A stretch of 64,000 bases of DNA from an uncultured Gemmatimonadales bacterium. Lineage in GTDB: Bacteria; Gemmatimonadota; Gemmatimonadetes; Longimicrobiales; RSA9. Position numbers and translations under genes: made by a program. The notes below the pieces were generated by a model. It searched no databases, was not told the origin of the DNA, and saw nothing but the letters and a program-made list of their open reading frames with translations. The stretch lies in the NCBI GenBank assembly GCA_963798845.1, contig CAWCUS010000002.1, forward strand, positions 800,001-864,000, in the 5' to 3' direction. How positions within the stretch are numbered: the stretch's first letter is position 1; each line of letters starts with the position of its first letter. Shown piece by piece: positions 1 to 30,340 of the stretch.

Positions 1-1948
<1,948 letters not shown>

Positions 1949-2021
1949 CGCGGGATCCACGGAAACGTCCACTTCCGGACAGGGCACGTGAACGCGCTAC
2001 GGCCCACGTGACGAGGCGGCC

Positions 2022-2597
2022 ATGAAGGTTGGCGTCTTCGGCGGCACGTTCGACCCGCCGCACCTGGGGCACCTGGTCGCCGCGCAGGAGATCCACGCGC
2101 AGCTGCGCCTCGACCGGCTGCTGCTGGTGCCCGCGGCCGTGCCACCCCACAAGCAGGACCGGGAGGTTTCTCCGGGCGACGTGCGGCTCGAGATGCTGCG
2201 CGCTGCCGTGGGCGACGACCGCCGTTTCGAGGTCAGCAACGTGGAGCTGCGGCGGGGGGGCGCTTCGTACACGGTGGACACGCTCCGGACGCTGCGGGAG
2301 CGCCACGGCGCCACCGTGAGGCTGTTCCTCGCCATGGGCGCCGACCAGGCCGGCGAGTTCGATACCTGGCGGGAGCCCGACGCCGTCGCGGAGCTGGCCA
2401 CGCTCGCGCTGTTCGCCCGCGAAGGTCAGGCGGTGCCGGATCTCCCCGGCCGCCGCGTCGCCCACGTCACCGTTCCCACCCTCGAGGTCTCCTCCACCGA
2501 CATCCGCCGGCGCGTCCGTTCCGGCGAGCCGATCCGGTTCCTGGTCCCGGACCCGGTCGCCGCGATCATCCGCAGGGAAGGGTTGTACACCGCGTAG
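2022..2597 (+). CDS. nadD: Nicotinate-nucleotide adenylyltransferase
   Basis: GVFGGTFDPPHLGH, SYTVDTL, MGAD and VSSTDIRRR motifs; GAGG RBS. Confidence 0.95.
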   Translation: MKVGVFGGTFDPPHLGHLVAAQEIHAQLRLDRLLLVPAAVPPHKQDREVSPGDVRLEMLRAAVGDDRRFEVSNVELRRGGASYTVDTLRTLRERHGATVRLFLAMGADQAGEFDTWREPDAVAELATLALFAREGQAVPDLPGRRVAHVTVPTLEVSSTDIRRRVRSGEPIRFLVPDPVAAIIRREGLYTA

Positions 2598-2655
2598 GCG
2601 CTCCCCCCAGCCACGGCTTGGCTCGTCCGGTCCGGCTATGGACGCGCCCCGCTGA

Positions 2656-3147
2656 CTACCGCACGATCCAGGCGGTGCCGCCGACCACCAGGATGACCAG
2701 GGCAGCGGCGATCTTGACGAAAGCGGCGACGGCGCGGGCCAGCACGACGCCCCAGCCGACCCGGGACGCGGCGGCCACGTCCCGGGACTCGTACAGGGCC
2801 ACCGCGGCGGCGCCGACGAATGAGCCGAGCACGCCGGCCACGACCGGGCCGACGACGGGGACGGGCACGCCCACGAAGACGCCGGCGGTGCCGCCGGCGA
2901 TGGCGCCCCAGAAGGCCGCGGGGGAGCCGCCGTACCGGGCGCTCATGTTCCGGACAATGAGGAACTCGAGGAGCTCGGCGGCGGCGGCGAGCAGGACGAC
3001 GGCGAGGATGACGGCCCAGCCCACGGCACCGAGGAGGCCGCCGAGGGCGACGATCCCGACCATGATCCAGAGGCCGGGCCAGCCGAGAGGGATGAGCAGG
3101 ATGCAGAGGAACATCAGCGCGGCGGCAGCGATGCCCACGATGCTCAA
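2656..3147 (-). CDS. DUF456-family membrane protein
   Basis: Hydrophobic 163-aa protein with PLGWPG, 'ARYGGS..AFWGAIAGG' and 'G.FVGA...LYE' patterns. Confidence 0.75.
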   Translation of the reverse strand: MSIVGIAAAALMFLCILLIPLGWPGLWIMVGIVALGGLLGAVGWAVILAVVLLAAAAELLEFLIVRNMSARYGGSPAAFWGAIAGGTAGVFVGVPVPVVGPVVAGVLGSFVGAAAVALYESRDVAAASRVGWGVVLARAVAAFVKIAAALVILVVGGTAWIVR

Positions 3148-3159
3148 GCGGTCCTCCCC

Positions 3160-3891
3160 GTGGCGGTGATCCGCGAGTGGCCGGCCCCGGAACGTCCGCG
3201 GGAGCGGCTGCGGTCGGCGGGACCCGGTGCATTATCCGTGCGTGAGCTCCTGGCCATCCTGGTGGGGAGCGGGACGGGCGGCAAGCGAGGGACCGTCGGG
3301 GCGGGGGGTGGCGGCGGGGCACGGACGGCGGTGGATGTGGCCGCCGAGCTGGTGCGCGTGGCGGACGGGTCGCTCCGCCGCCTGGCGTCGCTGGCGCCAG
3401 CGACGCTGGAGCGGGTGCCGGGGGTGGGCGGGGCGGTGTCGGCCAGGCTGTCGGCCGCGCTGGAGCTGGGACGTCGCCTGGCTCAGGAGGGGCCGGCGGA
3501 GCGAGGGCGCATCTCGGGTCCGCGCGACGTGTACGAGCGGTGCGCGCCGACCATGCGCGACCTCTCGCACGAGGAGTTCCGGGTTCTGCTGCTGAACACG
3601 CAGCACGCGGTGGTGCGGGAAGTCACGGTGTCGCGGGGGGTGCTGGACGGGTCGGTGGTGCACCCGCGGGAGGTGTTCCGGGAAGCGATCGTCGAGACGG
3701 CCGCGGCGGTGGTGCTGGTTCACAACCACCCGTCGGGGGACCCGGGACCGTCGGCGGAGGACCGGCAGGTGACGGCGCAGCTGGCGGAGGCGGGGCGGCT
3801 GGTCGGCATCCCCGTGCTGGACCACGTGATCATCGGCGATGGCCGCTACCTCTCGTTCGTGGAAGCAGGGCTCCTGTCGGCGGCGGCCTGA
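3160..3891 (+). CDS. radC: RadC/UPF0758 family protein (HhH plus JAB/MPN domain)
   Basis: ERPRERL, ELLAILVGSG, VHPREVF, HNHPSGDP.PS.ED and LDHVIIG motifs. Confidence 0.95.
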   Translation: MAVIREWPAPERPRERLRSAGPGALSVRELLAILVGSGTGGKRGTVGAGGGGGARTAVDVAAELVRVADGSLRRLASLAPATLERVPGVGGAVSARLSAALELGRRLAQEGPAERGRISGPRDVYERCAPTMRDLSHEEFRVLLLNTQHAVVREVTVSRGVLDGSVVHPREVFREAIVETAAAVVLVHNHPSGDPGPSAEDRQVTAQLAEAGRLVGIPVLDHVIIGDGRYLSFVEAGLLSAAA

Positions 3892-3939
3892 TCGGGTGCC
3901 CATCCGCCTCCCGCTGCCCGACCTCGGACCGGGACGGCG

Positions 3940-6630
3940 TCAAAGCCGCGAGATCAGCAGCAGGAGCGTTCCGACGCTGGTGGCGATCTGGATCACATCG
4001 CCCACCAGGCCGCGGACATCGGGGCGGTCGTCCTCGGGAACCAGCGGCACGGTCACCGTGCTGCCGGGCGCGGGGACGGGTCGTCGCTTGAACACCAGGA
4101 TCCGCTCGCGAACGGAGCCCTGCCCGTTGGCGTAGCGGACGTACACGTTGTCGCGGTCGGCGTGGCGCGCGTATCCCCCCGCGCTGGAGACGTAGTAGTC
4201 CAGCCCGGCGCCCTCGCGGTAGAGCACGGAGGCGGGCGAGTTCACGGCGCCCTGGACCACCACCACCGGGTTGTACTCGGCCACGTTCATGGAGTCGCCG
4301 GGGAGGATGATCAGGTCGGCGGGCGATCCGGGGTGCTCGAGCGCCTCCTCCAGGTCCACGTTGACCAGGCTGCTGTCCCTGTAGAGCTGAAAGCCCCGGG
4401 GGAACGCCGTGCGCGTGAGCCCGCCCGCGCGCTGCACCAGCTCCGACAGCCGCTCGTCCTTCGAGCGCAGCGCATAACTGCCCGGGTAGCGCACTTCGCC
4501 CTGCAGCGAGACCGTCCGCTCCGGCTCCAGGTTCGCCATCCGGCGCACGAACACGTGGTCGTGGGGCTCGAGCCGGACGGTGTCCGCGGAACGCAGTGCT
4601 CCCGTTTCGGCACCGGGCTGGGCTCCGCCATGGGCGCGGATCGCCGGTTCGGAGACGATCGCGGAGGGGCCGAGCTGAACGGTGACGGTCTCGGCGAGCT
4701 TCCCGGCGGCGCGCTCGGCGGGGTCGGGACGACGCGAGATCTCGACCGTCAGGTCCGCGTCGGGGGTGAGCCCGCCCGCCTGCAGGACGAGGTCGGCGAG
4801 CGTCATGCCCTCGTGATAGGGGACCTGGAGCCGCGGTCCCCGCCGCACCTCGCCCGTGATCTGGACCGCCAGCGAGTCGCGGAAGTCCGTGCGCGAGAAT
4901 ACCCGGATGGCGTCGTGCTCCTCCAGCTGCGGGTTCTCCACGGGCACGCCATCGCGGGTGGCGAGGGAGAACGGGACCACGTGGAGCGTGGAGTCGGAGG
5001 GGTCGAGGCGCACGATCTGGCCGCGCGGGCGGTACGCGTCCGGGCGCAGCCCCTCCACGGCCTCGATGGCGTCCCACGCCCGCATGCCGGGCCGGAACGC
5101 CACTGTGCAGAGCTGGCGCGTGGCCGAGTCGGGCATCACGGGCGGGAAGCCCGCACTGTCCGGGCGCGCCGAGGGCGCCGTGGGTGGCGCGGTGTCGGGC
5201 GGCTCGGCAGGCAGTCGCGGAGCGCAGTCCTTCCAGACCGCACCGGCCACCGTGACCACGTTCCTCACCTCGGAGCGGACGCGGAAGATCCTCAGCTCAT
5301 CGCCGTCTTCCAGCACGGGCGCGGGGGCCTTCCCGCCCAGGACCGCCGCCAGGTCGACCTCCACCACTGTCCGATCGATGCCCGGCTGCGTGCGCTGCGA
5401 CGGCGGCAGGATCCGGGTGACCGTGGCCCGGCCCGTCGCGGCCGGGGCGGTGAGGCCGCCCGCGAACTGGAGGACATCCAGCAGCGTCTCGCCAGGGATC
5501 AGCTCGTACAGGGCCGGGCGCACCACCTCGCCCTTCACCGCCACCTGCGGACCGTGGACGGGAACGAAGATGACATCGCCCGGCTGGAGCACCGCGCGGC
5601 TCACGTCCTCCCCTCGGGTGAGATAGCCGTACAGGTCGACCTGCCCGACCAGCTTCCCGCCACGCATGACGCGCACGGACCGGAAGCTCCCTTCCGGCCG
5701 CGGGCCGCCGGCGAGGTAGAGGGCGTTGAGAACGGAAGCGACAGGGCTCCCCATGTAGGACCCGGGACGCATCACCTCGCCGGTGAGAAAGAGCTGGTTC
5801 GACCGCAGCCGGCCGAGCGCCACTTCGACGTGCGCGGTGGGCTGCGGCTCCGCGGTGATGCCGGAGTACGAGCGGGCGAGCGCAGAGCGGAGGCGTTCGC
5901 GCAGGTCGGCCAGCGTGAGGCCGTTCACCCACACCTGCCCGACCTGCGGGATGACGACGAGCCCCTCGCGGCTCACTGGAAGCGTGTAGGACCTCTCCAC
6001 ATCACCGGTCAGGATCACCACCAGCTCGTCGCCGGGGCCCACGCGGTAGTCCGGAGGCACGGGCCCCATCGAGAGCGGCTCGAACTCGTTGCCCTCTCGC
6101 GCGAACGTGCGCAGCCCGAACACCCGGACACCGTACTCCCTCTCCATCGGCAATGAGTCCGGCATGAGGAGGTCCGTGCGCCGTGGCGGCGGCGCGGCGG
6201 TGTCCGGGGCCGGCTTCGGAGTCGGCGCGGGCGCCGTGGTGTCGGCGGCAGGACGGATGTTCAGTGCCCGGAGCGCGGCGAGGACGTCCGCCCCGGGCGT
6301 GGGCGGGGCAGGGATGTCCGGGTCCAGGTACGGATCGAGGATCGAGGGATCGTAACCCCTGGACGCGAGCTGCTGCCGGAGCTGGTCCGGCGTTCGCCCG
6401 GACCCGAGGAGCTGCTGCCGCAGGCGAGCGCCCTCGCCGCCCTGCAGCGCCGGCGGCGGGTTGGTCAGGCCCGTGGGCTCCTGCGCCCGCACGCCTCCGG
6501 CGGACACTGCGAGCGCGCAAAGGGAGAGCACGATGGGCGTGGCGCGGCCCGGTGCGCGGCGGGCAGCCCGCAGGAGCATGCGGAAGCGCGCCAGGTGCAG
6601 CTCTTCGATCGCGACGTTCGGGATCGACAT
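3940..6630 (-). CDS. Polysaccharide export protein with multiple SLBB domains (Wza/KpsD-like); start uncertain (6630 or 6579)
   Basis: Signal peptide ending VRA-QEP; DYRVGPGDELVV Poly_export motif; repeated GEV..PG.Y...AGG SLBB units; C-terminal amphipathic helix. Confidence 0.88.
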   Translation of the reverse strand: MSIPNVAIEELHLARFRMLLRAARRAPGRATPIVLSLCALAVSAGGVRAQEPTGLTNPPPALQGGEGARLRQQLLGSGRTPDQLRQQLASRGYDPSILDPYLDPDIPAPPTPGADVLAALRALNIRPAADTTAPAPTPKPAPDTAAPPPRRTDLLMPDSLPMEREYGVRVFGLRTFAREGNEFEPLSMGPVPPDYRVGPGDELVVILTGDVERSYTLPVSREGLVVIPQVGQVWVNGLTLADLRERLRSALARSYSGITAEPQPTAHVEVALGRLRSNQLFLTGEVMRPGSYMGSPVASVLNALYLAGGPRPEGSFRSVRVMRGGKLVGQVDLYGYLTRGEDVSRAVLQPGDVIFVPVHGPQVAVKGEVVRPALYELIPGETLLDVLQFAGGLTAPAATGRATVTRILPPSQRTQPGIDRTVVEVDLAAVLGGKAPAPVLEDGDELRIFRVRSEVRNVVTVAGAVWKDCAPRLPAEPPDTAPPTAPSARPDSAGFPPVMPDSATRQLCTVAFRPGMRAWDAIEAVEGLRPDAYRPRGQIVRLDPSDSTLHVVPFSLATRDGVPVENPQLEEHDAIRVFSRTDFRDSLAVQITGEVRRGPRLQVPYHEGMTLADLVLQAGGLTPDADLTVEISRRPDPAERAAGKLAETVTVQLGPSAIVSEPAIRAHGGAQPGAETGALRSADTVRLEPHDHVFVRRMANLEPERTVSLQGEVRYPGSYALRSKDERLSELVQRAGGLTRTAFPRGFQLYRDSSLVNVDLEEALEHPGSPADLIILPGDSMNVAEYNPVVVVQGAVNSPASVLYREGAGLDYYVSSAGGYARHADRDNVYVRYANGQGSVRERILVFKRRPVPAPGSTVTVPLVPEDDRPDVRGLVGDVIQIATSVGTLLLLISRL

Positions 6631-14082: not shown

Positions 14083-16074
<1,992 letters not shown>

Positions 16075-16090
16075 GGCGGCCGCCGCCTCC

Positions 16091-16875
16091 CCGGGTCCCC
16101 GTCCCCGTCCTCCTCCCCGTTCGCCGTCCGGGTTTTCCCGCAGATGAAAGGAAAGCGCCTGAAACTGCCGTGACGTAGTCCCGTCATCGCGCGGAAGCGC
16201 CCGCCGCACTGGCCTTACCTACGGGAACTGCCGGACGCGGACGTGGAGGCGGACCGGGACGAGGAAACTACGGTGCGGCTTCCGGGCGGTTGGTTCACTC
16301 CACCGGGTCCCACCGGCGGAGGAGAGCAGTGAGCATGGCGCACACCCTGTCCGCCATGACCAGCGCCTCGTCCACTTTCTTCCGGTCCGCCAGATCGAAA
16401 AGCCGGATCTCCGTCAGGGCTGCGGCGCATTCGTTCGCGGAGGCTCGGGCGGTCACGTACCGTTCCGCTTTCGCGCCCGGCCGGTACTTGCCGGCGCCTT
16501 CCGCGATGTTGAGGTGCACGGAGCGGGCGGAGCGGAGCGCCTGGTCGCGCAGGTCCGCGCAGCCACGGGGGAGCTGAGCGCAGACCTCCCGCACGAGCCC
16601 GAGCAGATCCAGGGAGCGCGCGTGCACCTGCAGCTTCTCGAACTCGAACCGGGTCGCGGGCATGGCAGCGTGCCGGTGAGGAAGCGACGGTGTGGGCAGG
16701 GCGAGAATGCCGCTGAATCCGGGGCACGGCCATGGCTTGGCGGGCCACTTTCCATGGGCCACCCCCATCATCCTCCTCCGCGTCCCCGCCCGGCCGTTCC
16801 CGTCGGCTGCATCGGTGCGCCAGGCGCCTCGTCGCGGCGTCCGGGAAAACCAGGATGGAGACGACGCGGACCCGG
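16091..16875. repeat. Four hexamer-periodic tracts forming two nested imperfect inverted-repeat pairs around the four-helix-bundle gene
   Basis: A 16091-16140 (CCGGGTCCCCGTC...TCCGGGTTTTCCCG) matches the reverse complement of D 16842-16875 (CCGGGTCCGCGTC...TCCTGGTTTTCCCG); reverse complement of B 16222-16248 matches C 16776-16802 at 23/27. Confidence 0.7.
16295..16663 (-). CDS. Four-helix-bundle protein (23S rRNA IVS protein / Avd-like fold)
   Basis: FEKLQVHARS, DLRDQALRSARSVHLNIAEG and ARASANECAA match the family signature F..L.V...A / DQ..RA..S...NIAEG / A.GS..E. Confidence 0.9.
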   Translation of the reverse strand: MPATRFEFEKLQVHARSLDLLGLVREVCAQLPRGCADLRDQALRSARSVHLNIAEGAGKYRPGAKAERYVTARASANECAAALTEIRLFDLADRKKVDEALVMADRVCAMLTALLRRWDPVE

Positions 16876-16901
16876 AGCTACCCTTCAGGGACCGCGATCG
16901 C

Positions 16902-18731
16902 TCAGCCCCCCGCCGCCACCTCCCTCCACCTGGGGTGGCCCCTGAGCTTCGTCCACCAGCCCTGCTCCCCGAAGTCCGTGCCGGGGTTGGCCGCGGCGTA
17001 GTGCTTCAGGAGGTCGATGGCGTGGTCGTCGTCGCCGAGGCGGCTCCACATCTCGCCCTCCAGCAGGAGCAGGTCCCGGGTCGGGTCCACCTGCTCGGTG
17101 ATCCGCGCGTGGGCCCGGGCGAGGACGGCGCGGGCGCTGTCGGGCAGGTCGGCGCGGGCGAGAATGCCGCCGATGGCGAGGCGCGCGCGGGCGACCTCCC
17201 AGTCCCGCTGGTTCACGGGGGCGAGGGAGTCGAGGGCGGCCAGGAGGTCCCAGGCGGCGGGGACGTCGGGCTCCACGGCGTCGGTGTTCATGGCGAGGAG
17301 CTGGCAGGCGACGAACCGGTAGTTGCCGGGGAAGCGCTCGCGCCCGGTGTCGCACCAGCGGGCCATCTCCCGGTACTGCCCGAGGTTGAGCGACGCGCTG
17401 GCGATGCGCCAGATCACCAGGTCCGCATCGGCCAGGTAGGCGTCCTCCTCGTACGCCTTGCGGCCGGCCAGGACGGCGGCGGTGAGGTCCGGGGCGTTCA
17501 GGTAGAGGTGGCTGAGGCAGGCGTACGCGCTGGCCAGGCGATCGTCGATGTCCACGGCGCGCTCCAGGTCCGCGCGGGCGCTGCGGAACAGCGCGTCGCT
17601 CTCGTCGCGCTCGGGGACGACCCCCATGAGCCAGTGCCAGTACTTCAGCGTGCCGCGCACTTCCAGCGCGCGGGCGTCGTTCGGGTCCAGGTCGAGCGCC
17701 ACCTGCACGCGCTCGAGGCCGCGATCCACCCACGCCTCCATGTCGTCCAGGTCCGTGCCGAGCCGGGAGCGCCGGAACGCGACGAGGCCCCGCAGCACCG
17801 CGGGCTCCGGCCAGGCGGGGTCGAGCAGCTGAGCCTGCACGAGGAGCGAGTCGGCGCGGCCGAACGCGGTGGCCATGGCCCCGGCGTCGCCCTCGAGCAG
17901 GGCGTCCTCCGCCTGCTTCCGCTCGAACTCCGCGCGCTGGTACAGCGTCCACGCGGCCAGGCTCTCCGTCTGCCGCTTGGTGTGCCGCAGCTGCACCTGG
18001 TGGCCGAGCAGCCCGCGCAGCAGCCGCGCCGTCTCCTCCGCCACCGCATCCCTCGCCGCCAGCAGCTCGGCGGCCGGCCGCTCCAGCACCGCGCGGTCGA
18101 ACTCCACGCCGCTCTGGCCGTCCACCAGCCGGACGACGACGCGCACGTCGTCGCCCACCTTCTCCACCGCGCCGTCCACCACCGTCCCCGCCTTCAGCGC
18201 ACGCCCGACGCTGTCCAGCGGCACACGGGCCTCGCGGTACGGCGCTACGGCGTTGCGGGAGAGCACGTCCAGACCGGAGACCTCCGAGAGCTCGTCGATG
18301 AGCGACTCCGTCAGCCCATCGGCCACCGGGCGCAGCTCACCGGCGGCCGACAGGTCGACGAAGTAAGGGACGGCGACGCGGCCCAGGTCCAGCGCCGACG
18401 CCTCCGCGGCCGCGAGCGCCCGACGCTGCGACCAGTAGTCGTAAGCCGACGAGCCGCTGAACCCGAGAACCGCCAGCGCCACCACCGCGATGGTGACGAT
18501 CTCCTGCACCGGCGCCTTCTGCTTCCCCTTCTCCCCGTGGTACCACCCCACCAGGACCGCCACCACGATCCCGGCCGCAAACCAGGCCAGGGCGATCGTG
18601 TAGACCACCCGCGGCAGCACCTCGCGGTCCACGAGCTGGTCGAACACCTCCAGGCCGATCCAGCCGGCCGCCAGGTACGCCGCCACGATCTGGAAGAGAC
18701 GCCGCTCCTTCATGCGCTCGAACATGCCCAT
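16902..18731 (-). CDS. Membrane-anchored TolB-N/FlgO-like plus TPR protein (putative sensor, no catalytic domain seen)
   Basis: N-terminal 'KERRLFQIVAAYLAAGW...GWYHGEKG' three-TM module, then 'RVAVPYFVDLS...ADGLTESLIDELS...VLSRNAV' domain and TPR-like helices. Confidence 0.75.
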   Translation of the reverse strand: MGMFERMKERRLFQIVAAYLAAGWIGLEVFDQLVDREVLPRVVYTIALAWFAAGIVVAVLVGWYHGEKGKQKAPVQEIVTIAVVALAVLGFSGSSAYDYWSQRRALAAAEASALDLGRVAVPYFVDLSAAGELRPVADGLTESLIDELSEVSGLDVLSRNAVAPYREARVPLDSVGRALKAGTVVDGAVEKVGDDVRVVVRLVDGQSGVEFDRAVLERPAAELLAARDAVAEETARLLRGLLGHQVQLRHTKRQTESLAAWTLYQRAEFERKQAEDALLEGDAGAMATAFGRADSLLVQAQLLDPAWPEPAVLRGLVAFRRSRLGTDLDDMEAWVDRGLERVQVALDLDPNDARALEVRGTLKYWHWLMGVVPERDESDALFRSARADLERAVDIDDRLASAYACLSHLYLNAPDLTAAVLAGRKAYEEDAYLADADLVIWRIASASLNLGQYREMARWCDTGRERFPGNYRFVACQLLAMNTDAVEPDVPAAWDLLAALDSLAPVNQRDWEVARARLAIGGILARADLPDSARAVLARAHARITEQVDPTRDLLLLEGEMWSRLGDDDHAIDLLKHYAAANPGTDFGEQGWWTKLRGHPRWREVAAGG

Positions 18732-18769
18732 GGTGGTCCCGGGGTGAAGGGGAAGCCGGTTCTAGATGG

Positions 18770-20971
18770 TCATTGCAGCCCCGTTGGCGCGGGAATCCAG
18801 TCCGTGGGGCGCGGGAGGACTGCCTCGTCCGTCACCAGCACCCAGGACTCCGGCTCCGACAACGAAGCTGCCCTCCGCACCCACCACCTGCGCCCAGCTC
18901 GCCAGGTCCGGAACCTCGAACGCCCAGATCGCTCGGCCGGCGCCCTGGATGTATGCGAACGCGATCCAGTTGCCGTCCGGCGAGACCACCGGGTCGGAAA
19001 CCTCGACGGACGTGTCGGAGGCAGGCGTGAGCGGCGTGTATGACCCGTCCGACACGTCCATTACGTAGAGGTGGAAGTTCGCCTCGTACACGATGTGGCC
19101 GTTTCCGAGCCAGGCGAGCGACCTGGGTTCGTGGGCGCCGACGATGTACTCGGTGGGCGTCTGGAACTCCGTGCTGAAGTATTCGAGGATCACGATCTTC
19201 CAGGAGCCGCCGCAGTCGGTGGTGTACGCCAGCGCGGACCCGTCCGGAGACCACGCCGGGCTGAGGCTGGTGCAGGGGTTCGTGGTCAGCTCGGCCCCAT
19301 CAGTGACCCGCACGTCGGACTCCGACTGGTCGTACCCGAACACCGGAACCGTGTAGATGTCGAAGTTCAGCGGTGAAACGATGTAGGGCGGCGCAGCATA
19401 GGCGATGAGACCGCCCGACGGACGCCAGTCGGGCTCGATGGGGACGACCCCGTTCGTATTCAGGGTGGACGTCTCCTTCGATGCGAGACTCATCACGCCC
19501 AGAGTCGCCGAGGGCTCCGCGCCGGTCACGTAGGCGGCGTGAGCGCTCCACGCGAGCGAACCGTCCAAGACCACTCCGTCCCGATCGTCCGTGGCGTCCG
19601 ACACCAGCAATTCCGCCGTTCCGCCCGGCGTCAGGGCGAACAGGTCGACGCTGCGCTGTTGTCCGGGTTCTCCGCCTCGAAGATGATCGTGCCGGGCAGG
19701 TCGGACCCGACCTCTTCGTACGGCGTCAGGAAGAGGTCGCTGAAGTCGTTGGCCATGCCGCCGACCACGCGCGTGGTGCGTTGCGCGTAGGCGGGCGGGA
19801 CCAGCCAGTCGAAGGCGAGGCGGAGGGTGGAGCGGAACGAGGTCAGGGCACCGACCGCCGCCGGCGCGCAGCTGAGCAGATCGGTGGCATCGACTGGTGT
19901 GAGAAGCGTCAGGATGGACGGCGCCCCGACCACGTAGTCCGCCTTGCCGATCTGCAGGCTCTCCGGGCTGTCGTTCAGGAGCGCGCTGTAGTCGCAGATG
20001 CCGACGAGGACCGGGTTGGTGAACTGCCCGGGATCCGGGAATAGCAGGTAGCGGTAGCAGTCCCACTGGGCGAGATCGGCGTCGTAGTAGCAGGTGTAGC
20101 CGTCGTCGATCTCGTCGTCCGTGAACCGCTGGTCGATGACGAGCGTGTACTCCGCGCCCTCGCCGAGCCCGGGCAGGTCGCCGGGCTGGAACCGCACGCC
20201 GGTGGTGTTGAAGCCGGCCCGCGGGTCGAAGAGGAAGAAGTCGCCGCCCGTCCCGGGGTCCACCTGTTCCACCGCGCAGTTGGTCAAACACAGATCGGGG
20301 TCGGGATAGCCGCCGTTGCCGTGGAACGCGAGGAGCCCGTTGGCGACGTCGTACTCGTATGCCGCGACGTCGATGCGGAACTTGATGGGCAGCATCCGGC
20401 CGTCCTTCAGGCCGATCATGTCGTCGCTGGACAGGTTCTTGATGTCCTTGCCGCTCTCGGCCAGCTGGAAGTCGGCGTAGCCCAGCTCGAACGCCCCGTC
20501 GTCGCCATCGAGGGTGATGATGATCCGGTAGGTGACCTGGGCGCCGTCCGCGACGGAGGTCCGGAGCGTATACGGCGCCTCGGCGGTACCGAATACCGCC
20601 TTGGTGTCGAACTGGAGATGGTACTGGCCGTCCTGGACGAGGATGCCATTCCCGACCGTGTACGTGGCGATCGGGCTCGGGGCGCCTTCGCATGTCTCGC
20701 CGCCGGTTGCCGCCTGGCAGATGATCGTCAACCTCGGATCCGCGTCGGGATCGAACAGCCCGAAGGACGCGGCCGGATCGACGGACACCATGGGCGCGAG
20801 CCAGAAGAAGTGGGGGTTGCCGGTCACGCCGGCATCCTGGTGCAGGGCGTCGGTGATGCCGGCGCGCGCGCCATCGGGGTAGAGTGCGGGTTCGGGGCCG
20901 GTGGCATCGGAGCAGGCGGTGCCGAGTCCGAACGAGGCTGCCAGGACAAGGAGCAATGCGGGTCGTCGCAT
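18770..20971 (-). CDS. Lipoprotein with unknown N-terminal beta-rich region and C-terminal TolB-like (PD40) beta-propeller; split by indels at ~19655 and ~18872
   Basis: MRRPALLLVLAASFGLGTAC lipobox; the next frame continues VDLFALTPGG with PDWRPSG, PAWSPDG and PVVSPDG repeats; the alternative final frame ends ...PRPTDWIPAPTGLQ* at 18770. Confidence 0.72.
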
Positions 20972-21050
20972 GAGGAGATTCCTCTTCGAAGTGGTCTGTG
21001 GGTCGTCGGTGTCGGGGCCCGGCGGACAGCGCCGCCGGGCCGGCATCGCC

Positions 21051-22199
21051 CTAGATCTCGGTGCCCTCGCTGATCCAGGGGCTGCGGGTGACGGCGAGCT
21101 CCAGGACGTAGTCGCCGTCGCCATCGGAGAAGCGCTGGCGGAAGCGGGCCTCGCCGTCGCCGGCCTTCACGGCGTGCTCGAGGACGCTCCGTCCCAGGAT
21201 GAAGGTGTGGTCGGCGATGTAGTCCTCGTTGAGGAAGGTGCCGAGCCACGTGATGAGCGAGCCGGCACCGGCGACCACGGCGATGGGGGCGCCGGCGCGC
21301 CGGAGGGCGGAGAGGTAGCGGGCGGTGGCGGCGAAAACGCCCTGCGCGACCGCGTCCATCTCCTCCAGCGTGCCGCCGACGTGCTCCCAGAGCGAGACGA
21401 CGACGGCGAGGGTGGGCGGCAGCTCCATGGGCGCACCGCCCGGGCCCCAGATGCGCCCTTCGCCCGGGGTGAAGCGGCGGAACTCGCCCGTGTCCACGTC
21501 GGGGAAGACGCGGCTCCGGAGCGTGGATGGGTGTTTCCCGCCGACGTCCACGGCACCGAACACCCAGTACGGCTCGTCCGCGCCCGCCAGGTCCCACCCG
21601 GTCTCGTCGTCGCACTTGAAGCAGGTGGCCTTGACCACGCACTTCATGGTCGGACGCGAGTGGCGGCCGTGGTCGGCGGCGACCGTGAGGCCGCACCCGA
21701 AGCCTGCCAGGACGGAGGGCGGGAGCACGGGCCGGTCGGAGAGCGTGAGCGGGCCGGCCAGAATCGCGCCGGCGTCCAGGATCAGCGTGTTCTCCTTTGC
21801 CAGGAGCCCCTCCTGGACGGGCTGGAGCCACTCCGCCATCTCCTTGAACGTCACCGCCTCATCCGACTTCAGAACCCCGAACATGCCGGGGAAGAACGTC
21901 TCCCGGACGTCCCGGTCCATCTCGGCGTACAGGCGACCCTGGTCCTTCAGCTTCGCCTCGCCAAGCCCGCTCGCCATCAGCGCGTCGACGATCACTTCCT
22001 CCGCCTGCGACAGCGGCGCGCCGATGCGCAGCTTCTCGCACCCGTGCAGCGTCAGCGCCAGCAGCCAGTTCCGCTCCCGGTTCGCGGCCAGCTTCTGGTG
22101 CAGGATATGACCCCGGCCGGTGTCGGCCGCGAGGTCGCTCAGGATCCGGTCCGATGGCTGGACCGCGCGGCGTCCGATAAAGCCGGACAGTCTGGTCAC
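21051..22199 (-). CDS. Hypothetical protein (acidic beta-strand motifs with an inserted hydrophobic helical segment)
   Basis: GTG start with AGGAGG RBS; 382 aa with normal composition; FKCDDETGWD..GADEPYWVFG, FPDVDTG and SLWEH motifs. Confidence 0.8.
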   Translation of the reverse strand: MTRLSGFIGRRAVQPSDRILSDLAADTGRGHILHQKLAANRERNWLLALTLHGCEKLRIGAPLSQAEEVIVDALMASGLGEAKLKDQGRLYAEMDRDVRETFFPGMFGVLKSDEAVTFKEMAEWLQPVQEGLLAKENTLILDAGAILAGPLTLSDRPVLPPSVLAGFGCGLTVAADHGRHSRPTMKCVVKATCFKCDDETGWDLAGADEPYWVFGAVDVGGKHPSTLRSRVFPDVDTGEFRRFTPGEGRIWGPGGAPMELPPTLAVVVSLWEHVGGTLEEMDAVAQGVFAATARYLSALRRAGAPIAVVAGAGSLITWLGTFLNEDYIADHTFILGRSVLEHAVKAGDGEARFRQRFSDGDGDYVLELAVTRSPWISEGTEI

Positions 22200-22285
22200 A
22201 ACGCCTCCTGATCTGGGAATGGGAGGTCAGGCGGTTCCGGGGCTGTCCCGCACGGCTCGCTTCCCCGGAACGGGGGAATGGGCGC

Positions 22286-22320
22286 AATGTATTCCGGGGC
22301 CGTCACGCGGCCGTCACGCG
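22286..22320 (-). promoter_or_regulatory. Putative SARP-dependent promoter: two direct repeats with 11-bp period, then a -10 box
   Basis: Minus strand reads GCGTGACG-gcc-GCGTGACG-gccccggaa-TACATT, upstream of the 22199 gene. Confidence 0.55.
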
Positions 22321-22364
22321 CCGACGGGCCGCCGGAGCTGGCTGGCCGGGAGGGCTGGCCGGGG

Positions 22365-22544
22365 GGGCTGGCCGGGCGGGCGGACCGGGCGAGCTGACTT
22401 GGCGGGCGGCCGGGGCGGCGGGCCGGGTGAGCGGACCGGGCGGGAGATCGGGCGGGCAGACGCGGGCGGGTGGACGCGGGCGGGCTGGCCGGGCGGGCGG
22501 ACCGGGCGAGCTGACTTGGCGGGCGGCCGGGGCGGCGGGCCGGG
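22365..22544 (+). repeat. Perfect 63-bp G-rich direct repeat, 2 copies, 117-bp period
   Basis: 22365-22427 is identical to 22482-22544 (GGGCTGGCCGGGCGGGCGGACCGGGCGAGCTGACTTGGCGGGCGGCCGGGGCGGCGGGCCGGG). Confidence 0.92.
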
Positions 22545-22622
22545 GGGTGGCGGGGGGTGGCACGGGGTGGCGGGGGGCTGCGGAGGCGGGTTGGAGGGCC
22601 GGGGTGTCGTGGTCGAGAATGT

Positions 22623-22728
22623 CTCCAGGTGGAGCGAACCAGGGCGGGCAAAATGTACCGCTAAGATGTTGTGTCGCAATGGTTTGTGAGGATTACGCGG
22701 GAGTGGTGATTCTCTCCAGCTGGAGAGA
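22623..22728. promoter_or_regulatory. Symmetric site: CTCCAGSTGGAG palindrome, N27, inverted IHF-like pair, N27, CTCCAGSTGGAG palindrome
   Basis: CTCCAGGTGGAG 22623-34; TAAGATGTTG-N5-CAATGGTTTG 22662-86; perfect 18-bp palindrome TCTCTCCAGCTGGAGAGA 22711-28. Confidence 0.45.
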
Positions 22729-22745
22729 GATCCGCGGGAGGAGGG

Positions 22746-24488
22746 TCAGGCGAGGGCGCCGGGGCGATCGAGGAAGAGGGAAGCGGCGAGGTCGGGGAAC
22801 CAGGGCTGGGCCTGGAGGCAGCGTGTGAAGGGCCAGGGTCGGAGGAAGGCGACGAGGCCATCGTGCTCGGCGAGGGCGCGCTGGAGCGCGGCGCGGGCGT
22901 CATCGATCTCGCCGCGGCCGGCGTGGACCATGGCGAGGGCGAAGGGTGGGACGTAGTGTCCACGCTGCGTGGCGTTGAGGAGGCGGTGGAGGATCCTGAG
23001 GCTGCCGTGGTCGTCGCCGGCGCGGGCGAGGACGTGCCCGAGCGAAGCCAGCATGAAGGGGTTGGCGGGGGAGACGTCGAGGGCGCGGCGGAGGTGGACG
23101 GCGGCCTCGGCGGGGTTGCCCTGGAGCTCGCGGAGCATGCCGAGCTGCCAGAGTGCCTGGGGGGCGTCGGGGTCGAGCTCGAGAGTATCCCAGACGTGGC
23201 GTTCGGCGCGGTCGATGTCGCCGGCGCCGATGTGGACCCAGGCCTCGCCGGTGCCGATGGGAATCGAGACCGGGTCGAGGAGGCGGGCGCGCCGGATGGA
23301 AGCGCGGGCCTCGTCGTGCTGCTGGAGGCTGGCGTGGACGAGGCCGATGCCCCAGTGGGCGAAGGGGAGGTGCGGCGCGACGTCGCGGGCGTGGTGGAGC
23401 CGTTCGAGCGCGTCGTCCACTCGGCGGTCGTACACGTGGGCTTTCATGCCGAGGGCCACGTGGGCCTCGGGGAGGTCCGGCTCCAGGGCGAGCGCCCGGC
23501 GCGCGGCGGCTTCCCCGCGCGGAAACGCGATCTCCGGCGGGAGGTGTGCGAAGTGGCCGAGGACGCAGTAGGCCAGGGCGGTGCCGGCGTGCGCCGAGGG
23601 GGAGTCCGGGTCGAGGGCGGTGGCCCGGGTGAAGTGGGCGAGGGCGCGCTCAATGGCCTCGACGCGCCAGCGCCGGAAGTGGTAGAGCCCGCGCCGCACC
23701 TCCTCGCCGGCGGTGAGCGGGCCGGGAGGCGTGCCGCGGGCTCCACTGCCCCGGCCCGTGCCCGGGAAGAGGCCGGCCCCGGGCTCGGGCGGGATCGGCT
23801 CGACCTGGAGTGTAAGCCCGAGGTCGCCCTCCACACGACGACGCAGCCGGTCCCGTTCCGCAAGCGCTCGTCCGCGCTCGCCCGTCTCCAGGAGCAGCGC
23901 CACCAGCCGCTCGCTGCGGGGCTCGCTGAACGGATCGATCTCGAGCAATCGCCCCAGCCACCGCGCCTCCGCGTGGCGGTCCCCGTCGGCGCGGGCGTCG
24001 GCGATCAGGCGGCCGACGGCGTCCAGCACCGCACGCTCGTACCGCTGCCGGGTCTCGTCGGTCCAGCGCTCGAACTCCGGCGACTCGGATAGGTGGAACC
24101 CGTCGAGGAAAGGCCCGGTGTAGAATCCGACCACATCCCCGGGGCGGTCACCCGCCAGCGCTTCCTCCAGGGCGGACGTGTCCGCCCAGCAGCCGGCGGG
24201 CGAAAGGCACAGCGTCTCCTCCGTGTCGCACGCCAGCACGTCGCTGCCGGCCGCGTGACGAACACGGGTGAGGAGCTGGCGCAGGGCGTGCCGCGCGTGG
24301 TGGCGGTTCCGCTCGGGCCACAGCAGCGCCGTGATGAGCTCGCGACGTCGGGGCGTGCCCGGGGGCGCCGTGGCCAGGTACGCGAACAGCGCCATGATCT
24401 TCGCGCTGCCGAGGATGCCGGGGATCTCCCGGCCCCCGTCCGCCAGGACGCGTGGCGAGCCCAGCAGCCGAAGGATCAGCGTCTGCAC
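22746..24488 (-). CDS. SARP-family (OmpR-like wHTH plus BTAD) transcriptional regulator with C-terminal TPR repeats
   Basis: LRLLGSP, ALFAYLA, RELITALLWPE, ARHALRQLL, YTGPFLDGF...EFERW and IDPFSE motifs; TPR repeats follow. Confidence 0.88.
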   Translation of the reverse strand: MQTLILRLLGSPRVLADGGREIPGILGSAKIMALFAYLATAPPGTPRRRELITALLWPERNRHHARHALRQLLTRVRHAAGSDVLACDTEETLCLSPAGCWADTSALEEALAGDRPGDVVGFYTGPFLDGFHLSESPEFERWTDETRQRYERAVLDAVGRLIADARADGDRHAEARWLGRLLEIDPFSEPRSERLVALLLETGERGRALAERDRLRRRVEGDLGLTLQVEPIPPEPGAGLFPGTGRGSGARGTPPGPLTAGEEVRRGLYHFRRWRVEAIERALAHFTRATALDPDSPSAHAGTALAYCVLGHFAHLPPEIAFPRGEAAARRALALEPDLPEAHVALGMKAHVYDRRVDDALERLHHARDVAPHLPFAHWGIGLVHASLQQHDEARASIRRARLLDPVSIPIGTGEAWVHIGAGDIDRAERHVWDTLELDPDAPQALWQLGMLRELQGNPAEAAVHLRRALDVSPANPFMLASLGHVLARAGDDHGSLRILHRLLNATQRGHYVPPFALAMVHAGRGEIDDARAALQRALAEHDGLVAFLRPWPFTRCLQAQPWFPDLAASLFLDRPGALA

Positions 24489-24562
24489 ACCGCCACCTCT
24501 GCGGCGAGGGACATCTTGCGACCCGCGGAAAAGGGCGGGACGTCAGAGCGGGCGGGGCGATG

Positions 24563-24702: not shown

Positions 24703-25422
24703 GTGGGCGGTCCGAGGGATCAGCAGTTCCGGAGAATCGGATGGGAGAACGCAGGCGACGCACCGAACGGATCGGGCCCCGGGGACGCGGTCGTGGCTGA
24801 GCGCCATCCGGAGGGGGTGCGATCCGACATCCTCGACGAAGCGGGGGTGGAGGGCTGGGGTCGTCGCATCGGGGAAGCGGCGGTGGCCGGGGAGATCCGC
24901 CTGCCACTGGTGGTGGCGCTGCGCGGGCCGCTGGGCGCGGGGAAGTCGGTGCTGGCGCGCGCGGTGGCACGCGGGGCGGGCGTCGCGCAGCCAATGCCGT
25001 CGCCCACGTACAACCTCCTTTTCAGCTACGAGGCGAGCGGGGGGTTGAGGGTGCATCACCTGGACCTGTACCGGCTGGAGGACCCGGAGGACGTGTGGGA
25101 GCTGGGCTGGCAGGAGCTGGGTGACGGCGGAGAGATCGTGCTGATCGAGTGGCCGGACCGGGCGGAGTCGCTGCTGGCGCCGGACCGCTGGGAGGTGAGT
25201 CTGAGCTTCGCGCGGGCGTCGGAATCGGGAGCGGGCCCGTGGCCGGGCACGGACGCGGGCACGGACGCGGGCACGGACGCGGGCACGCACGGGCCCCGGG
25301 GCGCGAAGCCTGGCGGTCTGCGGCGGATCACGGTGGAGCGGGTGGGGGATGCGGCGGACGTGGTGCCCCTTCCGGGACCGGACCCGGGCTCGTCGGGTGG
25401 GGCCGGCGAGGAGGAGGCGGGG
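24703..25422 (+). CDS. tsaE: tRNA t6A ATPase TsaE (in frame with TsaB as read; start 24703 or 24793)
   Basis: LRGPLGAGKS, SPTYNL, HLDLYRL and LIEWPDR motifs. Confidence 0.93.
25244..25287 (+). repeat. In-frame 12-bp tandem repeat (CGGGCACGGACG x3 plus partial; GTDA repeats) in tsaE
   Basis: Directly visible in the sequence. Confidence 0.85.
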
Positions 25423-26100
25423 ATGATCAGTGTGGCGATCGAGACGGCCACGGCGGTGGGAAGCGTGGCGGTGGGGCGGGACGAGCGGGTGCTCGCGGAA
25501 GTGGCGATCGGGATCCAGTCCCGGCACGCGGAGAAGGTGCTGCCGGCGCTGGAGGCGGCGCTGGGGCTGGCCGGTGTATCGCGCGCCGAGATCGGCGAGG
25601 TGGTCGTGGGCGCGGGACCCGGTTCGTTCACGGGAGTGAGGGTGGCCGGGGCCACGGCCAAGGGGCTCGCGACGGCGCTGGATGTCCCGCTGGTCGCCTA
25701 CTCGAGCCTGCTGGCGCTGGCGGCGGGCGTGCCGTGGAACGGGCCGGTCTGCGCGCTGCTCGACGCGCGCCGGGGCGAGTGCTATGCGGGCGCGTGGCGC
25801 GTCGGCGAAGAAGAGCTGACGGTGCTGCTCGAGCCCGCCGTCGGGCCCGCGCAGCGCTTCGGCCCGGCGGCGCTGGGCAGGGGCGGCGAGGTCCTGTACG
25901 TGGGCGACGGGGCGGTGAAGTACGCAGCGGCGCTGCGGTCCGTGGGCGCTCGCGTCGGCTTGCCGGCGGCATTCCCGCGGGCGTCGGCGCTGCTCTGGCT
26001 GGCGGCATCGCATCGGTCCGCCGGCGAAGTGGACGACGTCGCCGCATGGGAGCCGGACTACGTGCGGAGGTCGAGCGCGGAGAGGGGGGTGCGCGGCTAG
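25423..26100 (+). CDS. tsaB: tRNA t6A modification protein TsaB
   Basis: AIETAT, HAE.VLP, VGAGPGSFTGVRV, DARRGE and EPDYVR motifs; own GAGGAGG RBS. Confidence 0.93.
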   Translation: MISVAIETATAVGSVAVGRDERVLAEVAIGIQSRHAEKVLPALEAALGLAGVSRAEIGEVVVGAGPGSFTGVRVAGATAKGLATALDVPLVAYSSLLALAAGVPWNGPVCALLDARRGECYAGAWRVGEEELTVLLEPAVGPAQRFGPAALGRGGEVLYVGDGAVKYAAALRSVGARVGLPAAFPRASALLWLAASHRSAGEVDDVAAWEPDYVRRSSAERGVRG

Positions 26101-29045: not shown

Positions 29046-29756
29046 ACCTGATGGCACAGGCGAGGCCCGGCATGCAAGGGCCCCTGGAGATGATCCTGGG
29101 CGGGACGATCTCGACGCAGATCATCCTCGTGGTGCTGGCGGTGTTCTCCCTAGCGAGCTGGGCGGTCATGTTCTGGAAGTGGGGGCAGTTCCGGAAGCTG
29201 CGGCGCCAGGGAGTGCGCTTCCTCGCCGTCATCGAGAAGACGCAGCGGCTGCGCGACGCGTACCGGACGCTCACCCGCCTCCCGGAGTCCCCGTACACGA
29301 GCGTGTTCCGGCAGGGCCTCACCTTCTTCGACGAGCTTCGGCCTGGCACGCTGACCGGTGAAGAGAAGGCGAGCGAAGGCCTGAGCGAGTCGCAGCTGCA
29401 GGCGCTCTGGCTGGTGCTGGAGAAATCCCAGGCCGACGAGCGCGACACCCTCGCCGCCGGCCTGCCCTGGCTGGCCGTGGTCGGCTCGGTCTCCCCTCTC
29501 CTCGGCCTGCTCGGCACCGTGATCGGCGTCATGAACGCCTTTCTCGGCATCAGCGCCGTCGGGAGCGCAAACATTGGCGCCGTCGCGCCGGGCGTGGCCG
29601 AAGCGCTCGTGACCACGGTAGCCGGCCTCACCGCCGCCATTCCGGCCGTGATCGGCTACAACCTGTTCGTGAGCCGGCTCAACGCGTTCGGCGGCGAGCT
29701 CGAAGGCTTCGCGTCGGAGTTCATTCGGGACTCTCGCGAAGGAGCGACTGCTTTGA
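29042..29756 (+). CDS. tolQ: TolQ/ExbB proton channel; apparent 1-nt insertion at ~29725 (as read, the ORF runs on to 30343)
   Basis: SPLLGLLGTVIGVM and VAPGVAEALVTTVAGL.AAIPA motifs; removing one base gives ...EFIGTLAKERLL* ending at 29756. Confidence 0.9.
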
Positions 29757-30340
29757 GGGGGGCTCGGCCGCTTCGCGGCCTCGCAGAGGGGCTCGGCCTG
29801 CGGCCTCGCAGAGGGGCTCGGCCTGCGGCCTCGCAGAGGGGCTCGGCCTGCGGCCTCGCAGAGGGGCTCGGCCTGCGGCCTCGCAGAGGGGCTCGGCTTT
29901 CGGCCTCGCAGAGGGGCTCGGCCTTCGGCCTCGCAGAGGGGCTCGGCCGCCTTGCGGCCTCGCAGGCAGGCTCGGCCTTGCGGCCTCGCAGGGCGAGCGC
30001 AGCGAGCCCCACCGCGAGGCGCAGCCGAGCGCCCCTGCGAGCGCAGCGAGCCCCTCTGCGAGGCGCAGCCGAGCCCCTCTGCGAGCGAAGCGAGCCCCTC
30101 TGCGAGCGCAGCGAGCCCCTCTGCGAGCGCAGCGAGCCCCTCTGCGAGCGCAGCGAGCCCCTCTGCGAGCGAAGCGAGCCCCTCTGCGAGCGCAGCGAGC
30201 CCCTCTGCGAGCGCAGCGAGCCCCTCTGCGAGCGCAGCGAGCCCCTCTGCGAACGCCGCGAGCCCCTCTGCGCGGCCGCGACGCGGCCGCGCCCCCCTGC
30301 GGCGCCGCAACGCGCCTGGCCCGCCGCCGGAGGCGCCCCC
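29757..30340. repeat. Fold-back element: 25-bp tandem array facing a 21-bp tandem array with the same core inverted; possible MITE
   Basis: TCGCAGAGGGGCTCG x7 perfect (starts 29781-29931, 25-bp period); CGAGCCCCTCTGCGA x10 perfect (starts 30047-30238, mostly 21-bp period); degenerate units near the axis ~29992; bounded by TGA-GGGGGG and CCCCC-TGA. Confidence 0.92.

Follow-up and report, generated by a model that had tools for sequence, protein, structure and literature searches.

A 64,000-nucleotide stretch of DNA from an uncultured Gemmatimonadales bacterium (positions 800,001 to 864,000 of contig CAWCUS010000002.1, assembly GCA_963798845.1; the window hereafter) raises the question of why a small gene should lie between inverted repeat tracts next to uvrB. 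The gene encodes a four-helix-bundle (4HB) protein of the family PF05635, and an earlier note, made from the letters alone, had proposed that the protein and its flanking inverted tracts form a unit, possibly a mobile or self-excising one. That they form a unit is upheld here by relatives of the gene, by plasmid-borne members of the family and by a ribosomal RNA (rRNA) gene. The bracket that two of the tracts, B and C, make around the gene is above chance, and such a bracket also surrounds relatives from Gemmatimonadota and Cyanobacteriota and the ORF of an Azospirillum 23S rRNA gene. With somewhat more confidence than doubt, we describe a PF05635 cassette as a 4HB open reading frame (ORF) between inverted short tandem tracts, with a purine-rich coding-strand arm upstream and its complement downstream. 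On balance, the window cassette is best regarded as an old, now immobile, vertically inherited copy of an intervening-sequence-type cassette lying outside rRNA, a type met with across the PF05635 family.

The gene and its tracts in the window

The assignment of the gene to the intervening-sequence and Avd-like four-helix-bundle proteins, made in the earlier note, was confirmed by profile matches to PF05635 ('23S rRNA-intervening sequence protein'; E 1.1e-14, 54.9 bits, cut-off 33.8) and TIGR02436 ('four helix bundle protein'; E 7e-15, 55.1 bits, cut-off 24), and by a match over residues 4-118 to PDB 2GSC (XCC0516), a solved four-helix-bundle relative (E 1.3e-12). The family motif G-x2-R-x3-S-x3-N-x2-E, as given in PMC3936711, is present; S48, N52, E55 and G56 do not vary in alignment A1, and R44 and R47 hardly do. 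The start codon was placed at the ATG at 16663, where 24 homologues in the same alignment begin, and a longer reading of 158 aa was rejected on their agreement.

Four [GT]TTCCCG sites, out of 27 in the entire window, fall within about 800 nt around the gene (16134 (+), 16228 (-), 16796 (+) and 16848 (-)), in the order A> <B gene C> <D and at the positions that the earlier note had claimed. Tracts B and C form an inverted repeat of 66 nt at 73% (16188-16253 with 16771-16836; 25/29 and 30/36 by other alignments), A and B one of 48 nt at 71%, and A and D one in two pieces, 24 nt at 75% and 20 nt at 85%. An inverted alignment of the 300-nt flanks of the gene scored 45, against 21.4 +/- 2.9 and a maximum of 31 in 200 dinucleotide shuffles, and was second among 421 sliding pseudo-gene controls across the window. 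Chance or low complexity as the source of the B:C pairing was rejected by the shuffles together with two sorts of empirical control.

When the tracts were paired as duplexes (plus/minus strand), A:B reached -91/-98 kcal/mol (z -4.9/-6.2, with none of 300 shuffles as low) and B:C -60/-67.5 kcal/mol (z -3.2/-5.1; 1/300 and 0/300). The values for A:D (-54/-63 kcal/mol, z about -2.2; 5/300 and 3/300) and C:D (-45/-48 kcal/mol, z -2.0/-1.6; 6/300 and 18/300) were marginal. The 220-nt spacer between uvrB and the 4HB gene, which holds A and B, had a minimum free energy of -125.0 against -103.6 +/- 4.8 in shuffles (z -4.4, 0/200). The earlier note had taken A:D and B:C as the best pairings, nested in a double stem; A:B is in fact the strongest, and of the two pairings that it named B:C stood clear of the shuffles and A:D did so only marginally. 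Nor did the minus-strand (mRNA-sense) RNA place the gene in a nested loop, as had been supposed: in an 851-nt fold the nested form appeared on the plus strand, whereas the mRNA-sense strand preferred local hairpins (z about -2.5, from 20 shuffles only). The palindrome over the uvrB stop codon was found as described; it makes a 7-bp hairpin in the plus-strand fold without a T-run after it, and an intrinsic-terminator scan returned no terminator-like site. A G-quadruplex was considered and dropped, as there is no G3+N1-7 x4 motif within 15900-17100. The features are listed in Table 1.

Table 1. Features at the uvrB-4HB locus, in window positions
Feature	Position	Strand	Description
uvrB	14083..16074	+	Pfam UvrB_inter, UvrB, Helicase_C, UVR; convergent with the 4HB gene
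Palindrome GAGGCGGC-c-GCCGCCTC	16073..16089		8 bp, overlaps the uvrB stop codon; direct reading and self-inverted BLAST hit
uvrB-4HB spacer	16075..16294		Single long imperfect hairpin (A, apical region, B)
Tract A	16077..16143		C-rich on the plus strand, roughly hexameric (GTCCCC), ends in TTTTCCCG; outer arm of the A:B hairpin
Tract B	16188..16284		Arms 16188-16253 (with C) and 16237-16284; pyrimidine-rich on the gene sense strand, just past the stop codon; pairs locally with A, across the gene with C
4HB protein gene	16295..16663	-	122 aa, isoelectric point (pI) 8.8; PF05635, TIGR02436
Promoter-like element	16704..16735	-	ATGGNNGTGCCCC (16721-16733), then -10-like CATTCT (16704-16709)
Tract C	16771..16836 (core 16771-16803)		Purine-rich on the gene sense strand, upstream of the gene; inverted partner of B
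Tract D	16842..16875		Weak fourth copy, just past the stop codon of the upstream gene
Upstream neighbour ORF	16902..18731	-	609 aa, no Pfam or NCBIfam match; opens a stretch of about 7.7 kb absent from relatives

The bracket and its movement across the family

A tblastn search of the window protein against a plasmid collection gave no match, and two more distant family members were therefore used as queries. The resulting set held 17 stretches with 18 PF05635 genes, mostly cyanobacterial, whose 200-nt flanks were scored (loci are cited by labels of the form L001). A flank score of at least 35 was reached by 15 of the 18 genes and by 3 of 47 genes not adjoining a 4HB gene (Mann-Whitney p 1e-7); the median plasmid cassette scored 52.5, and the 45 of the window lies within the family range. 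L009 and L014 have 17-nt arms and scores of 29-30. With 100-nt flanks, the top controls included an insertion-sequence-like gene with 37-nt ends and a small ORF between tracts of the same family. At L018:678-878, a 66-aa ORF of no recognised family lies between AGTCAGG-type tracts, as does the 4HB gene nearby.

The layout of these cassettes is regular. In 12 of the 13 genes with an arm within 100 nt, 1-27 nt separate the end of the purine-rich tandem tract from the start codon (45 nt in the thirteenth), and the complement of the tract starts at or just past the stop codon. Of the 17 plasmid-borne genes listed, 13 have an upstream arm with a purine fraction of 0.67-1.0, the other four being without a real arm within 100 nt; the fraction is 0.67-0.86 in the window, L001, L004, L008 and L015. 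With Tandem Repeats Finder, 11 of 14 cassettes had a period of 7 nt, two had one of 8 nt and L021 had none, a count that leaves aside L015 and the near-copies L013, L018 and L024. The unit sequence varies by cassette (AGTCAGG, GGGAAAA, AGGGAAC, AAGTCGG, GGGTGTG, AAAAGCT and others); the arms within one cassette are still complementary. In the cyanobacterial cassettes, GGAG-like words stand in the upstream tract by the start codon, with their complement in the downstream tract. The 4HB proteins are basic (pI 8.8-10.3). At L022:2652-4100, long arrays of AAAAGCT and AAAAGCC stand in direct repeat on either side of the 4HB gene, and a complementary array follows the next gene, cas4, so that an inverted pair encloses two genes.

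One of the plasmid-borne ORFs lies inside an rRNA gene. On plasmid AZO_p2 of Azospirillum lipoferum 4B (L015), which bears an rRNA operon, the 4HB ORF is within the 23S rRNA gene (large-subunit match 1720-4918), between 30-nt inverted arms of 7-nt units (2873-3341; 27/30 matched, score 45), and in the minimum-energy fold the stem closes around the ORF. This is a genuine ORF-bearing 23S rRNA intervening sequence; the ORF carries no annotation in the PLSDB table. Because L015 is built like the other cassettes, rRNA intervening sequences and cassettes outside rRNA share one architecture, and the window unit would accordingly be an intervening-sequence-type cassette outside rRNA. There was no rRNA match in 15500-17500, so the window copy lies outside any rRNA gene. 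The sole Rfam match in that interval, to a eukaryotic long non-coding RNA (E 0.41), was judged to be chance.

The plasmid cassettes also show movement. A conserved three-gene operon of Nostoc plasmids exists in three states: L014 lacks a cassette; in L012, L013, L017 and L018 a cassette extends exactly from the stop codon of gene 1 to the start codon of gene 2; and in L011 a different cassette, with a different repeat unit, lies exactly between genes 2 and 3. L017 and L012 are near-identical and differ in the number of 7-nt units on both arms. The Nostoc junctions showed no target-site duplication. L010 (Aulosira) and L012 resemble each other at 84% over 416 nt, a stretch that begins 38 nt before the start codon and stops, with the similarity, 12 nt after the stop codon; for L019 (Geminocystis) and L023 (Nostoc) the figure is 72% over 477 nt, and the similarity likewise ends at the tracts. 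The same cassette is thus found in surroundings that are unrelated. The 4HB genes of L009 and L022 each lie between cas genes, in agreement with 18 genes of the family in cas loci that PMC3936711 reports. The gene and its tracts have moved as a unit in these other lineages, as expected of a transposase-less mobile unit.

Relatives in Gemmatimonadota and fixity of the window copy

A protein search returned 33 relatives, the nearest of which, apart from the window's own record, is 70% identical. The genome scan comprised seven loci, five of them from Gemmatimonadota (L006 is from a Pirellulaceae genome and L007 is a gene fragment). The 4HB gene converges on uvrB in L002, L003 and L005 as in the window, so that the site is occupied in all four genomes seen with a uvrB-adjacent locus. 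The window uvrB shares 86-88% identity with its counterparts in L003 and L005, which are 83% identical to each other, and the 4HB proteins at this site are just 47-64% identical. A second conserved site, between glpK and maf, holds the gene in L001 and L004, with neighbours 66-83% and 4HB proteins 57% identical; L001 and L003 come from one assembly. The uvrB-site gene of L002 (4962-5408) is without the usual N-terminal FEFEKL segment or a clear start codon and may be decaying.

Repeat tracts adjoin the 4HB gene in every one of these loci. Flank scores were set against those of controls drawn from these loci (391 pooled, the highest 37). All 391 were exceeded by L001 (51, inverted), L004 (157, inverted, its arrays spanning about 340 and 270 nt) and L005 (101, with a hairpin unit of about 100 nt repeated directly on both sides), and L003 and L006 (34 each) lay at about the 99th percentile. 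The unit period is 7 in L001 and L004, and the two L004 arrays have higher-order periods of 59 and 44 nt, which indicates that unit and orientation are conserved rather than exact register. Divergent genes enclose the upstream tract in L001, L004 and L005. The spacer between uvrB and the 4HB gene forms a hairpin despite differing sequence in L002 (z -6.3) and L005 (z -3.9), and none in L003.

Parts of the unit are shared in sequence. The tract C motif CCGACGGGAA[CA]GGCCGG matches at 16/17 positions in the downstream tract of L001 and 14/14 in that of L003, to which tract B also matches at 18/20. The 13-nt motif ATGGNNGTGCCCC occurs in exactly one copy each in the window, L001, L003 and L004, each time upstream of the 4HB gene. 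In 6/6 Gemmatimonadota loci it is accompanied by a -10-like yATnnT at a constant 24 nt from the motif position (23 in L001), and yATnnT is 31-41 nt before the start codon in loci with a clear start. The upstream elements of the window and L001, which occupy different sites, match at 26/30. In the window, about 107 nt holding this promoter-like element separate the upstream tract from the ORF. Since the upstream motif and the tract motifs are shared, the unit of tract, upstream element, ORF and tract is homologous between the uvrB and glpK-maf sites. An upstream in-frame 'PWxCP' reading was dropped, as the residues from this motif to the start are not conserved (distances 70, 64, 61, 61 and 71 nt).

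The window copy is fixed beside uvrB in its lineage. The 4HB gene has native codon usage, with G+C at the three codon positions (0.74/0.48/0.88) similar to that of adjoining genes in a window of 70.8% G+C. Neither the tracts nor the upstream motif has a second copy in the 64-kb window, and a scan of 35 other window proteins (uvrB, cysQ and 33 others) turned up no recombinase, transposase or reverse transcriptase. An integron cassette was considered; no integrase was seen. The mobile unit proposed in the earlier note is therefore borne out by the Nostoc plasmid cassettes and not by the window copy, which is syntenic in L002, L003 and L005, has a third-position G+C of 0.88 and lacks a second copy. 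That note had itself listed syntenic fixity after uvrB among the observations that would speak against its proposal, and this is what these three relatives show.

The earlier note was correct in placing the cassette at the left edge of an accessory island. In L002, L003 and L005, tsaE is directly upstream of the 4HB gene, whereas in the window it lies at about 24.7 kb, beyond about 7.7 kb (16.9-24.6 kb; 16902-24542) with five minus-strand ORFs, three without a Pfam match, one a tetratricopeptide repeat (TPR)/BTAD protein and one outside the scan. The 609-aa ORF next to the cassette was not found in any of the three relatives, and no repeat marks the far boundary of the stretch. The 4HB gene is thus the edge of a lineage-specific insert while being itself syntenic. 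The window ORF at 24703-26097 fuses TsaE and TsaB-like domains, with a 12-nt tandem repeat (4 copies, 25244-25299) between them. In L003 (4618-4707), tsaE contains, in frame, a 21-nt tract of the same kind as the one that follows the 4HB gene of that locus; since this metagenome-assembled genome has an N run nearby, an assembly error is possible.

Other repeat arrays were seen in the window and in the relatives. A G-rich tandem array of about 250 nt (22331-22577; units of 13, 14 and 51 nt) occupies the spacer of two minus-strand genes in the lineage-specific stretch, and its GGGC-type words resemble the flanking unit of L005. At 29750-30300, two abutting inverted tandem arrays (a 25-nt unit x8.5 and a 21-nt unit x13.1) separate a MotA/TolQ/ExbB-family gene from an ExbD/TolR gene and make up a giant hairpin without a gene, G-rich arm first, at a Tol-Pal-like operon junction; they gave the top sliding-control score (105). 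Intergenic tandem arrays not adjoining any 4HB gene occur at L002:1792-2135 and L003:1534-1624, the former an inverted pair with a core like the window's tolQ-tolR unit, at another site. A TTTCCG-type array at the contig end of L004 (1-53), 5 kb from the cassette, probably broke the assembly, and its presence indicates that the tract family is dispersed in that genome.

Competing explanations and comparison with known systems

Several observations weigh against the reading of the window copy as an old cassette. Its tracts are weak and only roughly periodic, and Tandem Repeats Finder called a hexamer array in A alone (16095-16129, period 6, score 40); of the hexamer tracts described in the earlier note, the TTCCCG-type sites were present in all four. 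The 238-nt upstream region folds like its shuffles (z -0.1), and A:B, the strongest of the pairings, is a local hairpin that may be no more than a terminator between convergent genes. A scan for the sigma-70 promoter consensus found nothing, so that the label 'promoter' is putative. Flanking tracts, which were expected of all relatives, hold for L001, L004, L005, L003 and L006 and fail at L002 (score 26, equalled by 11/40 controls, flanks sharing no repeat) and at L007 (score 21, no bracket). Among the plasmid genes, L021 has no flanking arms and no tandem period was found there, and the purine/pyrimidine order is reversed in L016 and L022, as it is in L006. The plasmid genes are also not independent (L012/L013/L017/L018 are one insertion and L023/L024 another), with about 14 independent cases, 11 of which score at least 35. 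Mismatches in the arms are G-U in 49 cases and A-C in 45, which gives no sign of selection on an RNA stem, and the count is uninformative for an RNA as against a DNA role. Short-period arrays lacking any 4HB gene occur in the window (22331-22577 and 29775-30272) and also in L002 and L003, so such tracts are not exclusive to the 4HB gene. Finally, a tree of 37 proteins (P0015, identical to the L001 protein, was left out) put the window protein in a clade with the glpK-maf-site proteins (support 98/99), and under the approximately unbiased (AU) test, placing the uvrB-site proteins in one clade was not rejected (p 0.285). The tree hinted that the cassette at the uvrB site had been replaced, which that test did not uphold; we therefore claim neither replacement nor plain orthology.

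The tracts might be nothing but ordinary intergenic furniture, with A:B as a bidirectional terminator hairpin, D as the C-rich 3' region of the upstream gene and the likeness of the tracts as a by-product of repeat-prone, GC-rich genomes. This would account for A:B being by far the best pairing, for the long hairpin in the uvrB-4HB spacer of three of the four uvrB-site loci, for the fact that on each strand every tract is C-rich right past the 3' end of a gene, and for the arrays without a 4HB gene in the window and other loci. We nevertheless consider it quite unlikely: the upstream tract of L001, L004 and L005 lies between divergent genes, where no terminator is needed, the bracket is present in 15/18 distant family members against 3/47 controls and travels with the ORF between contexts, and composition-preserving shuffles fall short of the observed pairing. 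An RNA model, in which the ORF sits in the loop of a long-range stem (B:C, perhaps with A:D) and cleavage of this stem by RNase III would release or silence the 4HB mRNA, on the pattern of rRNA intervening sequences, would fit the build of L015 with its stem closed around the ORF, the RNase III excision published for one such intervening sequence (PMC4990558), the nearly constant purine-then-pyrimidine order relative to the ORF, the GGAG-like words and their complement in the cyanobacterial cassettes, and the nested plus-strand fold of the window. It seems improbable here, since in 6/6 Gemmatimonadota loci a conserved promoter-like element separates tract C from the ORF, so that the gene's own transcript would lack the upstream arm. 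Divergent genes around the upstream tract in L001 and L004, the preference of the mRNA-sense fold for local hairpins and the lack of a G-U excess over A-C mismatches speak in the same direction.

A currently active mobile or self-excising DNA element, with the inverted tracts, or direct hairpin copies as in L005, as ends or crossover sites, is very unlikely at this locus. Insertion polymorphism and the recurrence of the same cassette in unrelated contexts on cyanobacterial plasmids would suit such an element, as would the upstream and tract motifs shared by cassettes at two sites and the direct repeat of the hairpin unit in L005, which a single-crossover integration would leave. The gene, however, occupies the same position in four genomes, beside a uvrB that is 83-88% identical while the 4HB proteins are 47-64% identical; its codon usage is native and its nearest protein 70% identical; and tract copies, motif copies and enzymes of mobility are missing from the window within the searches given above. 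It is also conceivable, if unlikely, that the tracts are arrays of DNA binding sites for the 4HB protein, symmetric about its gene and serving self-regulation, which does not imply mobility. Avd binds nucleic acid. The 4HB proteins are basic and are relatives of Avd (PMC10053308), the short-unit copy number differs between the near-identical cassettes L017 and L012, and the arrays of L004 differ in higher-order period, all of which would suit binding arrays. Against them, the unit sequences differ greatly although the proteins share invariant residues, and binding alone leaves unexplained why the tracts travel with the ORF.

If the window copy is an old cassette inherited in place, as we prefer to read it, it would have entered the uvrB-tsaE spacer long ago as a unit, with a sister cassette at glpK-maf. 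The gene would be transcribed from its own promoter-like element (16704-16735), between the upstream tract and the ORF, and the tracts would evolve by slippage and be kept alike within a locus. Tract B and the extra arm A may now form a long hairpin that ends both the uvrB and the 4HB transcripts; C would be the retained second arm of the bracket, and A and D extra copies. The basic 4HB protein, an Avd relative, probably recognises the repeat arms. A strand-specific, expression-linked role is favoured by the near-constant purine-first order, by the GGAG-rich tracts at start codons and by the rRNA case, and arms acting as an RNA stem are disfavoured by the promoter-like element inside the bracket, by the divergent flanks of L001 and L004 and by the lack of a G-U excess.

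The window copy, on this reading old, decayed and immobile, is of value as a lead to the wider cassette type. Three questions have stood for about three decades: the role of the ORF in rRNA intervening sequences, the origin of these sequences, and the nature of the heptamer arrays over-represented in cyanobacteria and xanthomonads. The present data join them, as one ORF-in-inverted-tract unit occurs in a 23S rRNA gene, within operons on plasmids (in some cases flanked by cas genes) and at chromosomal sites where it is fixed; the cassette edges are delimited by filled and empty sites found in nature, and the bracket offers annotators a simple rule for recognising such units. A more far-reaching view, which we hold to be possible but doubtful, is that PF05635 cassettes are widespread transposase-less mobile elements, or 'free-living intervening sequences', in which the moving unit would be purine tract, 4HB ORF and complementary tract, and a pentameric Avd-like protein would recognise the 7-nt arms and promote insertion or upkeep. 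The rRNA intervening sequences would then be cassettes landed in rRNA helices, and the abundant heptamer arrays without a gene, and the inverted pairs of arrays (the STRR repeats of Nostoc, Xanthomonas GGGAATC and the window's tolQ-tolR arrays), non-autonomous or decayed derivatives. If true, this could also explain the CRISPR linkage of the family in large surveys. In a literature search that covered subscription journals thinly, no publication came to light that connects PF05635 genes outside rRNA with repeat tracts beside them.

Among known systems, repetitive extragenic palindromes and bacterial interspersed mosaic elements (REP/BIME) with their REP-associated tyrosine transposases (RAYT), transposable elements of the miniature inverted-repeat type (MITEs) and foldback elements likewise place a gene between inverted repeats, and their repeats also occur gene-less as hairpins within one genome, as at 29750-30300. 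As in foldback elements, the ends of the cassette consist of tandem sub-repeats. The window cassette differs in having no HUH or DDE enzyme, and the gene-less window arrays use a different unit from the cassette tracts. PF05635 resembles Avd, the accessory protein of diversity-generating retroelements (PMC10053308), which is of the same fold family and is also a small basic protein; at the window locus there is no reverse transcriptase among the 35 scanned proteins, no template/variable repeat pair was seen, and no long direct repeat lies near the gene.

The heptamer arrays of Nostoc and Xanthomonas (GGGAATC, GGGGA[CT]T) are likewise short G/A-rich intergenic tandem units, often in convergent pairs. 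In X. campestris pv. campestris, Rehm et al. described 186 arrays of GGGAATC, 70 as convergent pairs, and gave their function as not known (PMC4692102). According to its supplement, a GGGAATC x4 tract overlaps the start codon of XCC0516, the protein of PDB 2GSC; the terms 'four helix' and 'S23' are absent from its main text and 'S23' from its supplements. TAACTGA heptamer repeats were described elsewhere, in passages that make no mention of the 4HB family (PMC4679880). Units resembling these arrays were found in the window (GGGAAC-like), L023 (AGGGAAC) and L001 (CGGAAAG), and the window tracts differ from them in being degenerate and hexamer-like. Compared with 23S rRNA intervening sequences, the window copy lies between uvrB and a protein-coding gene, has about 107 nt with the promoter-like element between its upstream tract and the ORF, and carries the extra outer arms A and D. 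For one such rRNA sequence, PMC4990558 reports heptamer tandem repeats just before the ORF, and it restates old ideas of intervening sequences as transposition remnants or mobile elements. ORF-bearing members of the Leptospira/Coxiella type, L015 included, likewise have a PF05635 ORF within inverted short-tandem repeats, purine arm first, and L015 and the window cassette have equal scores (45).

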